A DNA stretch of 64,000 bases from NCBI GenBank assembly GCA_000092065.1, contig CP000581.1, one strand, 5' to 3'. Positions 41,820 to 46,688 of this stretch are shown here, in pieces (positions within the stretch are counted from its first letter, which is position 1; each line of letters starts with the position of its first letter). The notes under the pieces were generated by a model that made no database searches, was not told the DNA's origin, and saw only the letters and a list, made by a program, of their open reading frames with translations. Source of the DNA: Ostreococcus lucimarinus. Taxonomy: Eukaryota. Made by a program: the position numbers and the translations under genes.

Positions 41820-44800
41820 ATGGTGGAACGAGCGGAGGCGCGAGCGGAGAGGGAGGGGCGACGCGGGCGTGGGAGGTTGCGGTTTCGCGCGGCGGCGGCG
41901 CGAGTGGCGCGGGAGCGGCGAGAGGCGCGGAAGGCGTTGAGGTCAGACGCGGGGCCGGGCGCGACGATGGGCGGGACGGCGCTCGGGATGTTTAGGGTGG
42001 ATAATCGCGCGCGCGTCGCGGTTTTTCGAATCATGCACTCGCAAGCGATGGAATATGTTGTTTTCGTGGTGATATTGGCGCACTTCGTCACGCTCGTGCT
42101 GCTGGCGACGAGCGGGGAGTCGACGCGGGCGATATCGAGCTTGAGCGAGTTGGCGAAGTCGCCGCTTCGCGCGATCGACGCGGCAATCTTGTGCGTGTAC
42201 TCGATCGAGGCCGCGGCGCGGATTTTCAGTCTTGGATTTATAGGGCACAAGCACGCGTACATGTCGAGCGTGTACAACCAGGTCGATCTCGCCATCATCG
42301 CCGTGAGTTGGCTTTCGATGACGATGCAGTGGCACGGGAGCGATTCGCTGTTCACGCGCGTGCGCGTCGGACAATTGCGATTCTTTCGCGGGGTGCACGC
42401 GCTCAAACGGTTCAAGCTCGCGACTTCCGTGGTTTTCATCGCGGAATCGCTTCAGAAGTCCATCGTGCTTTTACGCGATGTCGCCGCCATTACTGTGATT
42501 TGCGCCGTGTTTTACGCGCTCATGGGTATGGGTATCTTCGGCGGTTCGCTTCGACGGCGATGCGTGGAGACGACTTCGGCGGAGACCGCGCGCATGTTTT
42601 ACACTGCGGTGAGCGATCCACCGTTATTTTGCGGGGACGTCGGCAATTTACCGAATCATAAAGGCTACGTGTGCCCGGGGGTGTACGATTCCAACTCTTC
42701 GTTATTTTGCAGCGATTTGGTCGGCAATCCACAGCACGGTTATCAATCGTTCGATAGCTTCGGGTCAACGCTGCTCGTGATGTTTCAAACAATCACGATT
42801 GAGGCGTGGCAGGATGTGATGTACCCAATCGTCAACGCCGAGTATAAAGCGTCGGCGGCGTACTTTGTGACACTCATCATCGTGGGGACGTACTTCATCG
42901 TCTCTGTCTTCGTCGCCGCAGTGAGCGGAGTGTTCCTCCGGCTCCGACGCGAGCACCAGATGATGCTGCGAAGTAAATCAAGAAACGGGGCATCGTCCGA
43001 TGATGAGCTCGAAAGCGAGCTCGCGATTCGAAAACTTATTCGAAGGTTAAACGGCGGCACGGGCGAAACGTTAGCCTCGATCGCGGAAGCGGCGTTGACG
43101 AGAAAGCGAATGCTGGAAGAAGGAGACAACGATCAAACTCGAGCAATACCGAGCGGTGTTGCGCGGCCAAAACGCGATCGGTTATCAGAGCGCATTAATC
43201 ATCCGTATTTTGACAAGATGGTGAGAATTTTAATCGCTGCGAACATCGCCGTCATGGCACTGTATCGATTCGATTTGGACGACACAAAGAAAGAATATCT
43301 CGTCATCGCCGAAGGTTTTTTCGTGTCTGCGTTCATGCTTGAAGTGATATTACGGGGACTTGCGGCGAAGGACATCGGTCGACGTATCGTGACGTTCAAG
43401 CCGACGAATGAGGATTTGATGCTGGTTTTCGACACGGGCGTCGTCGCAATTAGTGCAACGGTGATGTGGGGCAAAGGCATGAATTTGACTTCGCTGCGCA
43501 TCCCGCGGCTATTCAAGACTTTCGGACCTGCAAAGTCGCAAACAGGCGTGGACACCATAAATCGTGTCTTCAAGTCGCTCGGCTCCCTTCTTTCCTTGTT
43601 TTTATTCTACGTCGCAATTCTCGCCATGTACGCCGTGCTCGGTATGCAACTATTCGCGAATCGTGATGCTGGTTTGGAAGACATGCCACGTCTGCACTAT
43701 AATACGTTTCCACAAGCCATGTTGGCGTTGTTTGTCGCCAGCACGGGTGAGGGTTGGACAGATTTGATGTTTCACGGCGTGCAGATCACAAATGCGGCGA
43801 TTCCGTTTTATATTTCGTTCTTCGTGCTCGTCAACTACATCGTTCTCAACCTCGTAATCGCCGTAGTTCTCGAGAACTTGGAGTTGCGAGACGTTGAAAA
43901 GACAATTGTCCAATCCGAGGAATTGGTGAAACGAACGGTGAAGATGGCGATGCGAGATCAAAAGTTTGTAGATTTCATGGAGCGCGCTCGCGTGAAATTC
44001 AAGTTAACGCTCAGCGGACGCCGTTGGACGGTCGAACGCGCACATCGACTTTCACCGTGGCTAGAGCTTCGTTCGGAGACGGAACGGCGTATATCTAAAG
44101 CTATTGAGCGAGAGATTGCGGTGTCGCTTGTGCAAAAGGCGACGTCAGATACAAAGGTTGGTGGCGAATTTGTACTGTGCGAGTCCAAGTTCGTCCAAGT
44201 CGCGCCAAACTCAGTGGGAGACGACATGGCGCCAGCCGGCGCGGATGCCGGCGGGCTGACCGTGTGCATGAAAGTTCGTGTAGACAACGATAGCGCGCAC
44301 GCCTTAGGAAATAGTACAACGGGGAAAGCGGCATCGCGACACAATCCCATCGCTAGAGGCGGCGACGACGACGGGCGCGTGGAGATTATCTTTGAAGACG
44401 CTGTCTCCAAAGCTACTGACTTCGCGGCGTGCCCAGCTCTACCGTGGTACATATCCGACGACGCATTGTGTATATTTCCTTCGTCGGGTAAATTACGAAC
44501 AACCTTACGCAGAGTGCTTCGATCGCGATGGTACGAGCGCATAAGTTTTTCTTTCGTCGTCGTATCCGTCCTCGCGGTTTTGGCGACCAAGCCTGTGGAT
44601 CAAATAAACGAGCTTCAAAAACATGTCGATACTGCAAACTACGCCGTTTGTGGATTCTTCTTGGTTGATTTCATCATGAATATCATCGCACACGGGCTCA
44701 TACTCACGCCGGCGCCGTTCGTCGGCAGGGTTTGGAATGTATTTGACATGGCCATCTTGATCATCGACGTGATGATTGTGGCCTGTCCCCTAATACTCGG

Positions 44801-46688: not shown

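Follow-up and report, generated by a model that had tools for sequence, protein, structure and literature searches.

Four-domain Cav/Nav channels track flagella across eukaryotes, and Ostreococcus is a named exception (PMC4685582), being non-motile and without flagella (PMC7935092, PMC4685582). A gene for such a channel in Ostreococcus lucimarinus raises the questions of whether it is functional, which ion its product would conduct and what purpose the channel might serve. The gene considered here lies in a 64 kb stretch of O. lucimarinus DNA, the whole of which is referred to as the window.

The gene, its identity and its start

A single uninterrupted ORF, beginning with ATG and encoding 1622 aa, was present at 41820..46688 on the plus strand in the ORF list of the window (Table 1). 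Pfam detected four Ion_trans stretches in the protein (E = 5e-141), the best covering residues 1221-1458 (repeat IV). The 1622-aa protein aligns collinearly from end to end with its orthologues and with repeats I-IV of Cav1.2, which is consistent with the absence of introns given in the earlier note; the note's description of a four-domain channel was confirmed. The gene is real and intact, its predicted product being a four-domain voltage-gated-type cation channel. Overlapping ORFs in other frames and strands (for example, 41348-42439, minus) were dismissed as GC-rich artefacts; they overlap the conserved CDS and the divergent neighbour. The GC content of the gene is 0.54 compared to 0.61 for the window. 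A horizontal origin, considered on account of this low GC, was rejected since the gene's GC2 is low, as expected of a membrane protein, GC3 is similar in other long window genes and the orthologues are syntenic.

Table 1. Positions of the features described in the text (numbering of the window)
Feature	Position	Strand	Details and evidence
TATATATA, candidate TATA box	41781..41788	+	In 318-bp divergent intergenic region; ends 32 nt before ATG 41820
Complete single-exon CDS, predicted four-domain voltage-gated cation channel	41820..46688	+	ORF list, Pfam, PDB phmmer, Ostrel2 motifs
N-terminal 49 codons upstream of alternative ATG	41820..41966	+	Synonymous excess, third-position excess
Alternative in-frame ATG (Met50)	41967..41969	+	Equivalent to annotated start of O. 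tauri CEF96560.1
Repeat I (S1-S6)	42045..42950	+	Aligned to Cav1.2 repeat I
Repeat I S4, GQLRFFRGVHALKRFKL	42369-42419	+	R187, R190, H193, K196
Repeat I pore loop TIEAW, residues 326-330	42795-42809	+	Filter E328, +1 Ala; aligned to Cav1.2 TMEGW
Repeat II	43203..43889	+	Aligned to Cav1.1 repeat II
Repeat II S4, TSLRIPRLFKTFGPAK, charge-poor	43488-43535	+	Two Arg in helix core (R560, R563), then K566
Repeat II pore loop TGEGW, residues 642-646	43743-43757	+	Filter E644, +1 Gly; aligned to Cav1.1 TGEDW
Repeat III	44517..45335	+	Pore module best PDB matches T-type Cav3.2/3.3
Repeat III S4, RAFNMAAPMRPIRIMTR	44826-44876	+	R1012, R1015, R1019
Repeat III pore loop SLDGW, residues 1115-1119	45162-45176	+	Filter D1117; aligned to Cav1.1 TFEGW, Cav3.2/3.3 SKDGW
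KLLT in III-IV linker (SGRKLLTERQKLW)	45351..45362	+	At aligned position of Nav IFMT inactivation particle; PMC5824947 Table S3
Repeat IV	45480..46193	+	Pfam; aligned to Cav2.2/Cav1.2 repeat IV
Repeat IV S4, IGRPFRFLRVFRIIRH, canonical	45759-45806	+	Five Arg at every third position, then His
Repeat IV pore loop TGEGW, residues 1399-1403	46014-46028	+	Filter E1401; aligned to Cav2.2/Cav1.2 TGEAW
EF-hand-like/GPHH region, residues 1478-1510	46251..46349	+	Pfam GPHH; aligned to Cav2.2/Cav1.2 C-terminal domain
Pre-IQ, LLESLLATKLGAA	46491-46529	+	PMC5824947 Table S3; on long predicted C-terminal helix
IQ-type motif AQSYIRGHITR, residues 1596-1606	46605-46637	+	PMC5824947 Table S3; long predicted C-terminal helix

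Judged from motif strings and flanking accessions, the gene corresponds to O. lucimarinus XP_001415426.1, the 'Ostrel2' of Pozdnyakov, Matantseva and Skarlato (2018; PMC5824947), whose Tables S1-S3 catalogue its S4 segments, KLLT, pre-IQ and IQ. The S4, KLLT, pre-IQ and IQ strings of the window protein equal those of Ostrel2 (Tables S2/S3), bar scrambled letters in the supplement text. In addition, three RefSeq proteins of O. lucimarinus CCE9901 chromosome 1 are 100% identical to window ORFs, and their accession numbers flank XP_001415426. The same survey lists the orthologues from O. tauri (CEF96560.1, 'Ostret3') and Bathycoccus prasinos (XP_007515549.1, 'Bathyp2'); these three entries are the same gene as that in the window or orthologues of it, with no substantive difference in the motifs compared. 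As the sequence of the gene has been published together with its S4 segments and its linker and IQ motifs (PMC5824947), the channel gene and its motifs are already known and are not a new discovery. Papers searched for XP_001415426, CEF96560, XP_003074195 and A0A090LXD9 gave no main-text matches, only the supplement of PMC5824947. Literature searches for functional studies of Ostreococcus Cav channels returned only surveys and reviews, and none was found that gave electrophysiology, localisation or transcript data for the 1622-aa protein or any orthologue.

Loss of the flagellum could have relaxed selection, leaving a decaying or non-functional relic of which the degenerate repeat II sensor and first IQ position would be signs. 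This is highly improbable. Apart from the uninterrupted 1622-codon ORF, substitutions in five lineages show a strong third-position excess (differences at the three codon positions of 0.20/0.10/0.48 in repeat I and 0.23/0.11/0.53 in repeat IV), on which a pseudogene was rejected. Bathycoccus, Pycnococcus and Chloropicon have intact orthologues, as do nine or more Ostreococcus-type lineages. The LRxxRxF pattern of the repeat II S4 is conserved family-wide, which is not random decay. By the pattern of codon-position differences, the channel gene is under purifying selection. Its synteny is kept in four other Ostreococcus-type lineages.

The earlier note had drawn attention to the element TATATATA, 32 bp upstream of the first ATG, and had suggested that the functional start may be the ATG at 41967. 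The first observation is correct. TATATATA is the sole copy in the 64 kb window (0.01 expected), and four orthologous loci likewise have AT-rich or TATA-like elements ahead of their first ATG; it is a candidate promoter element. The downstream start was not supported: residues about 15-49 (RGRGRLRFRAAAARVARERR...RSDAGPGAT) are conserved as protein, and the 36 codons before ATG 41967 differ from those of the closest orthologue by 11 synonymous to 3 non-synonymous changes (the two remaining frames give 3:11 and 1:13), with a third-position excess of changes in the N-terminal codons. Furthermore, of nine Ostreococcus-type lineages six have Leu in place of Met50. For O. tauri, the reference model CEF96560.1 begins at the Met50 equivalent and is 57 residues shorter at its N terminus than the conserved ORF. 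Use of ATG 41967 as sole start, although not unreasonable, is disfavoured by the coding pattern, and ATG 41820 is most likely the translation start. Against this stand the TATA element 32 nt before ATG 41820 and the downstream start of the O. tauri model.

Pore loops and choice of ion

Filter residues were assigned by aligning each repeat to solved Cav1/Cav2/Cav3 structures. Each repeat has a selectivity residue two positions before the conserved Trp, as expected of a four-domain channel, and E328, E644, D1117 and E1401 align with the filter Glu/Asp of the solved channels. The E/E/D/E filter previously read from the pore loops was therefore upheld, and the possibility that its residues had been mis-assigned was removed by the structure-based alignment. 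E328, W330 and E1401 are invariant among homologues and D1117 is invariant in 19 homologues; the E/E/D/E filter is kept in 19 homologue clusters, which come from Ostreococcus, Bathycoccus, Pycnococcus/Pseudoscourfieldia and Chloropicon.

The ring consists of four acidic residues and has no Lys of the type found in Nav (DEKA or DKEA) or in NALCN/Cch1 (EEKE/EKEE). It departs from the EEEE locus of Cav1/Cav2 in its repeat III Asp, and from the EEDD locus of Cav3 in its repeat IV Glu. It is thus neither EEEE nor DEKA, as had been noted, but it is less unusual than this suggested, as the filter falls between Cav1/2 EEEE and Cav3 EEDD. A ring of carboxylates is by itself insufficient proof of Ca2+ selectivity, given that bacterial channels whose ring is EEEE select for Na+.

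The filter+1 residues are A/G/G/G, with no acidic 'beacon' after any filter residue; repeat II, for example, has TGEGW where Cav1.1 has TGEDW. Spafford (2023; PMC10120453) regards a beacon Asp in this position, in repeat II or IV, as the hallmark of Ca2+-selective Cav1/2/3; it is absent here. In the scheme of that paper, Cav3 becomes a Na+ channel when the repeat II beacon Asp is lost. Relatives keep acidic filter+1 residues, all of which are lost in Ostreococcus lineages. In the scheme of Spafford, a neutral non-glycine residue at filter+1, such as the Ala of repeat I, goes with Na+ permeability (PMC10120453). The channel might accordingly be voltage-gated but Na+-permeable or non-selective, depolarising the cell rather than acting as a Ca2+ entry route; the Nav-like III-IV linker, and an O. 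tauri orthologue record named 'sodium channel', also favour this. It is a serious alternative but a rather unlikely one: in the same scheme Gly, found at three of the four filter+1 sites, is tied to Ca2+ selectivity, the four carboxylates are unaccompanied by Lys, the best similarity scores, both for the whole protein and for single repeats, are with Cav1/Cav2/Cav3 and not Nav, and the database name is automatic. An EEDE locus engineered in Cav3.1 still gave a Ca2+-conducting channel (PMC2217349). Judged from its pore loops, Ca2+ selectivity of the E/E/D/E channel is plausible.

Voltage sensors, regulatory regions and family likeness

The four voltage sensors differ in their predicted quality: that of repeat IV is canonical, those of repeats I and III are usable and that of repeat II is charge-poor. 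The KLLT of the III-IV linker, listed as the inactivation-gate motif of Ostrel2 (PMC5824947 Table S3), is conserved across the family. It has two hydrophobic residues followed by Thr, compared to three hydrophobic residues plus Thr/Ser in the inactivation-gate consensus, and by its alignment the linker is of Nav type.

In the C-terminal domain an EF-hand-like region is followed by pre-IQ/IQ, as in Cav1/Cav2. The GPHH match is above the Pfam cut-off (E = 9.7e-8; 32.2 bits against 26.8), and Q1597 and R1601 of the IQ-type motif are invariant in 14 homologues, so the EF-hand-like/IQ module reported previously is present. However, the EF-hand-like loop DPLATGFIGAHRL departs from the canonical Ca2+-binding pattern, and position 1 of the IQ-type motif is Ala, not Ile/Leu/Val. 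In Cav1.2 the equivalent IQ Ile-to-Ala change weakens calmodulin-dependent inactivation. Structure prediction (AF2) covering the C-terminal domain gave a model with pLDDT 82.5. All of its top Foldseek matches were C-terminal domains of four-domain channels; NALCN was the best match and Nav C-terminal domains, which have been solved with calmodulin, scored equally, all with marginal E-values (about 1e-3). That the channel is Ca2+-permeable and calmodulin-modulated, as the earlier note proposed, is a reasonable prediction from the EEDE filter and the EF-hand-like/IQ module, tempered by the missing beacon residue and the Ala that begins the IQ motif.

Deep nodes are not resolved in the published tree, and family placement was by motif tests and score ranking. 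In a phmmer search of the PDB the best match was Cav1.2 (E = 1e-117, 397 bits), compared to 297 bits for Cav3 and 232 bits for NALCN. Animal Cav1/Cav2 channels resemble the window protein in their (T/S)xExW pore loops, in acidic residues at +4 of repeats I and III and in their EF-hand-like/GPHH and pre-IQ/IQ architecture, and Cav1.2 has the highest overall similarity. Unlike them, the window protein has EEDE rather than EEEE, no repeat II +1 Asp, a Nav-like III-IV linker and a charge-poor repeat II S4. The AID motif for Cav-beta (QQxExxLxGYxxWI, also GYxxWI), which is reported only from the HVA Cav clade (PMC5824947) and lies there in the I-II linker, had no match in the window protein, whose own I-II linker comprises residues 378-462. 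Animal T-type Cav3 (EEDD) has the repeat III filter Asp in a similar loop, S(L/K)DGW(I/V)xxM(F/Y), but the window protein differs in its repeat IV Glu, its IQ module and its lack of a repeat II beacon Asp, and is less similar to Cav3 than to Cav1.

NALCN and fungal Cch1 have the four-domain architecture and the C-terminal fold in common with the window protein. A channel of this type, gated by leak or stretch and insensitive to voltage, might be suspected because UniRef labels the O. tauri orthologue 'Calcium-channel protein CCH1', because the repeat II S4 is charge-poor and the Arg ladders of repeats I and III have a His or gaps, and because NALCN ranks first in Foldseek. It is improbable, given the much lower sequence score, the absence of an EEKE/EKEE-type Lys, the intact five-Arg ladder in repeat IV and at least three charges in each of repeats I and III; the marginal Foldseek scores, equalled by Nav, do not single out NALCN.

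Clade, flagellum and function

The window protein and 18 homologue clusters share E/E/D/E, a repeat IV S4 with GRPFRF(L)R, KLLT, the LRxxRxF of repeat II and IQ. In the published set of 277 sequences (PMC5824947), GRPFRF/KLLT is carried only by Ostrel2, Ostret3 and Bathyp2, and none of the 13 sequences from the flagellate Micromonas has it. These channels may, tentatively, form a prasinophyte-specific clade, kept by purifying selection in non-motile eukaryotes that are the smallest known and marked by E/E/D/E, a two-Arg repeat II, KLLT and IQ. It would comprise Ostreococcus, Bathycoccus, Pycnococcus/Pseudoscourfieldia, Chloropicon and one or more further lineages.

The suggestion that this is the flagellar Cav of the alga fails because Ostreococcus has no flagellum. 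Chlamydomonas reinhardtii CAV2 is a green-lineage four-domain channel of the same superfamily, and this kinship, together with the correlation of four-domain channels with flagella, is what could make the window protein a CAV2 orthologue acting in the flagellum. The likelihood of this is minimal, Ostreococcus being a flagellum-less exception to that correlation and the GRPFRF/KLLT signature being missing from Micromonas. One of the Chlamydomonas entries in the published set is presumably CAV2. The S4 strings of Chlamr1 and Chlamr2 resemble those of the paralogue Ostrel1 rather than Ostrel2 (PMC5824947 Table S2), which suggests that Ostrel1 is closer to CAV2 by S4 motifs. In addition, CAV2 has an EEEE filter (PMC5824947) and acts in flagella (PMC5824947, PMC10120453). 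As the gene in the window is intact and, across picoalgal lineages, has been conserved along with its synteny, its channel must serve a non-flagellar purpose.

The best explanation as a whole, held with somewhat better than even confidence, is a four-domain E/E/D/E voltage-gated cation channel that is Ca2+-conducting and non-flagellar. On depolarisation of the membrane the S4 helices, mainly those of repeats I, III and IV, would move and open the cation pore, where the four-carboxylate ring would bind and conduct Ca2+. Inactivation would be shaped by the III-IV linker and by calmodulin on the IQ helix. The role would be in non-flagellar signalling, likeliest in plasma-membrane Ca2+ entry or excitability upon environmental stimuli.

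Although no new entity, the gene is of interest for channel evolution, and the increments made here are the assignment of the filter against solved structures, clade-wide conservation, start-codon evidence and exclusion of a flagellar role. With the genetic tractability of O. tauri and a compact protein encoded without introns, this would be a convenient system for study. The channel is one of those behind the Ostreococcus exception to the flagella-channel correlation (PMC4685582). Both the role of a voltage-gated cation channel in a 1-µm non-motile cell and the choice between Ca2+ and Na+ by an E/E/D/E ring with no adjacent 'beacon' Asp could be addressed with it. If the clade reading is true, it would offer a tractable example of flagellum-independent voltage-gated cation signalling, and the filter+1 losses in Ostreococcus could exemplify a natural change in selectivity between Ca2+ and Na+.

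Architecture and selectivity filter of the channel

The protein clearly belongs to the four-domain voltage-gated cation channel superfamily. Pfam recognizes four Ion_trans stretches (E 5e-141) and a GPHH ('IQ-associated') domain at residues 1478-1510, which passes the curated cut-off. A sequence search of solved structures returned only four-domain channels, with Cav1.2 at the top (E 1e-117, 397 bits), then Cav1.1, Cav2.x (~376 bits), Nav1.7 (336), Cav3 (~297) and NALCN (232). The ORF, the Pfam matches and the loop coordinates confirm that this is a four-domain channel with pore loops where the earlier note placed them.

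The filter was assigned by aligning every repeat to solved channels rather than by trusting the motif alone. TIEAW of repeat I aligned to TMEGW of Cav1.2, TGEGW of repeat II to TGEDW of Cav1.1, SLDGW of repeat III to TFEGW of Cav1.1 and SKDGW of Cav3.2/3.3, and TGEGW of repeat IV to TGEAW of Cav2.2/Cav1.2; the best PDB matches of the repeat III pore module were T-type channels. From these alignments the filter is E328/E644/D1117/E1401, and the E/E/D/E assignment was borne out, each acidic residue lying opposite a solved-channel filter residue.

Long ORFs overlapping the gene in other frames and strands (41348-42439 (-), 41431-41995 (+) and similar) were rejected as compositional artefacts of GC-rich sequence. 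GC content varies by gene across the window (0.49 to 0.74 per 2 kb), and GC3 is lower in three long genes, including that of the channel (0.61-0.65), than in two short neighbours (0.77-0.82), a difference that may stem from how strongly the genes are expressed or from the amino acids that they encode, not from foreign origin. Three RefSeq models from chromosome 1 of O. lucimarinus CCE9901 are shorter than the corresponding window ORFs, which are intact in metagenomes; because the shared parts are 100% identical, the models may be N-terminally truncated annotations. All three models match the window at 100% identity from end to end, so the window is either the CCE9901 genome or that of a strain indistinguishable from it.

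Channel gene and other features of the window
Feature	Position	Strand	Remarks
FAST-kinase-like protein	18829-20760	+	unrelated to channel
RAD50/SbcC-like ATPase	24533-28411	-	AAA_23, SbcC_Walker_B; unrelated to channel
ORF matching XP_001415424.1	31019-31939	+	306 aa; RefSeq model 187 aa
Conserved gene order	38789-50100		CAF16-like ABC ATPase (-), conserved hypothetical (-), channel (+), coiled-coil protein (+)
TATATATA, putative TATA-like element	41781-41788		sole copy in 64 kb, 0.01 expected
Four-domain channel ORF	41820..46688	+	single, ATG-initiated, 1622 aa
Leucine-rich-repeat protein	50111-53113	-	1000 aa; unrelated to channel
ORF matching XP_001415778.1 ('partial')	56984-58369	-	461 aa; RefSeq model 335 aa
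ORF matching XP_001415432.1, ornithine carbamoyltransferase	60690-61763	+	357 aa; RefSeq model 312 aa

The channel was included as 'Ostrel2' (XP_001415426.1) in a survey of 277 four-domain channels (Pozdnyakov et al. 2018, PMC5824947); its accession number lies between two of XP_001415424.1, XP_001415432.1 and XP_001415778.1. For Ostrel2 the S4 segments GQLRFFRGVHALKRFKL, TSLRIPRLFKTFGPAK, RAFNMA.PMRPIRIMTR and IGRPFRFLRVFRIIRH, the inactivation-gate motif KLLT, the pre-IQ LLE.LLATKLGAA and the IQ motif AQSYIRGHITR are printed (PMC5824947 Tables S2, S3), all of which equal the window protein save for a few scrambled letters in the supplement text. In O. tauri the orthologue (CEF96560.1/XP_003074195.2) has the annotation 'IQ motif, EF-hand binding site' and the UniRef name 'Calcium-channel protein CCH1'; a second O. 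tauri record reads 'sodium channel'. From the motif match and the existing annotation, the channel is already on public record at the level of sequence features. The identical protein was found again in marine metagenome and SRA assemblies. A literature search for functional studies of the Ostreococcus channel or its orthologue accessions found none.

Conservation and translation start

Orthologues occur in at least nine Ostreococcus-type lineages (61-73% identity), in Bathycoccus prasinos (~45%), in Pycnococcus provasolii/Pseudoscourfieldia marina (~38%) and in Chloropicon primus (~35%); another, P0016, comes from a lineage with a GC content of 61%. Among 19 sequences, E328, D1117, E1401 and the three adjoining Trp residues do not vary, and E644 is replaced by Asp in one cluster only. 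The 19 also share a repeat IV S4 with five Arg (GRPFRFxRxFRxxR[HY]), a repeat II S4 cut down to LRxxRxF, the III-IV linker SGxKLLTE(R/K)QK and an unvarying Q and R in the IQ motif. Substitutions per codon position in five Ostreococcus-type lineages were 0.20/0.10/0.48 in repeat I and 0.23/0.11/0.53 in repeat IV, and this excess at third positions indicates that the gene is under purifying selection and not decaying. Four other Ostreococcus-type lineages share the neighbourhood, and a Bathycoccus-like contig shares part of it; next to the channel are a 461-aa conserved hypothetical protein (-) with a weak Occludin_ELL match and, 3', the coiled-coil protein (~990 aa, +).

At the canonical spacing of ~30 nt from TATATATA, a transcript would start only a few bases before the ATG at 41820, for which reason the earlier note preferred the in-frame ATG at 41967 (Met50). 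Four orthologous loci also have AT-rich or TATA-like elements 5' of the first ATG. The 36 codons preceding Met50 are conserved above the protein average. Set against the closest orthologue, they show 11 synonymous and 3 non-synonymous changes (3:11 and 1:13 in the two other frames); this frame specificity was repeated in the other pairs, and the sole indel is of 12 nt. Met50 is Leu in six of the nine Ostreococcus-type lineages, which have no other universally conserved internal Met before S1, and the open frame 5' of the conserved stretch has a single ATG, 41820. With upstream codons evolving as coding sequence and Met50 so often Leu, a functional start at 41967 is not supported, and 41820 is probably the main start. 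A very short leader could also permit leaky scanning and so a second isoform that begins at 41967. In the O. tauri reference model (CEF96560.1, P0197) the protein begins at the Met50 equivalent, 57 residues past the initial ATG of the conserved ORF (compared with P0004); since the residues left out show the changes of a coding sequence, this annotation probably sets the start too late, or else there are two isoforms.

Ion selectivity and the C-terminal module

Depolarisation would open the channel, with most of the sensing done by repeats I, III and IV; Ca2+ would bind to and permeate the four-carboxylate ring, and the III-IV linker together with calmodulin bound to the IQ helix would shape inactivation. 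Ca2+ conduction by such a ring is supported by Cav3.1 with an engineered repeat IV D-to-E mutation (EEDE), which is still a Ca2+ channel (PMC2217349). AlphaFold models residues 1452-1622 (pLDDT 82.5) as paired helices, after which comes a 48-residue helix bearing the IQ motif. In structure the model is closest, with marginal E-values (~1e-3), to the C-terminal domains of NALCN and Nav1.5/1.4/1.2, the Nav domains in complex with calmodulin. The IQ motif begins with Ala and reads as a weakened variant, and the EF-hand-like loop DPLATGFIGAHRL is without canonical Ca2+ ligands, as is that of animal channels.

An Asp directly after the filter position (+1), the beacon, is a hallmark of Ca2+-selective Cav1/2/3, and Cav3 without it becomes Na+-permeable; Gly at +1 goes with Ca2+ selectivity and a small non-Gly residue with Na+ permeability (Spafford 2023, PMC10120453). 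The window channel has A/G/G/G and the beacon in none of its repeats; three Gly and one Ala make its selectivity ambiguous. Acidic +1 residues are found in Bathycoccus (TLEEW, repeat I), P0016 (TMEDW, SLDDW), and Pycnococcus and Chloropicon (LDEW, repeat III). Only the Ostreococcus lineages are without any, which may represent a lineage-specific change of ion selectivity; the relatives (P0012-P0020) also keep E/E/D/E. The proposed Ca2+-permeable, calmodulin-modulated channel is plausible from the acidic ring and the EF-hand-like/IQ module, but the A/G/G/G pattern, the Ostreococcus-only loss of acidic +1 residues, the Ala-initial IQ motif and the non-canonical loop oppose a confident call of Ca2+ selectivity.

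Channel family and cellular role

Unlike Cav1/Cav2, the channel does not have an EEEE filter, a repeat II beacon or an AID motif; unlike Cav3, it has a repeat IV Glu and an IQ module, and again no beacon. Nav1, NALCN and Cch1 have a filter Lys that is missing here, and it differs further from NALCN/Cch1 in its intact repeat IV sensor, NALCN also scoring far lower than Cav1.2 in the structure search. It is best described as a member of a prasinophyte-specific clade with a Cav-like pore and C-terminus and a Nav-like III-IV linker. Pozdnyakov et al. (PMC5824947) infer an ancestral channel of much the same make-up, with a filter like that of Cav, inactivation gates like those of Nav and motifs that bind calmodulin.

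In the published table, the S4 strings of Chlamydomonas Chlamr1 and Chlamr2 are nearer to the Ostreococcus paralogue Ostrel1 than to the window gene. One of the two is probably CAV2. The GRPFRF/KLLT signature is in none of 13 Micromonas sequences (PMC5824947 data set), and absence of the window-gene clade from that genus is suggested. Ostreococcus is non-motile and without a flagellum (PMC7935092), and is a named exception to the correlation of Cav/Nav channels with flagella (Brunet & Arendt 2016, PMC4685582); a flagellar role, as the earlier note had envisaged, is therefore excluded for this organism. Most likely the channel would serve cation signalling or excitability at the cell membrane, independently of any flagellum. 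The remaining interest lies in a conserved E/E/D/E filter without beacon Asp, a conserved degenerate repeat II sensor and the fact that picoalgae without motility have kept the gene.
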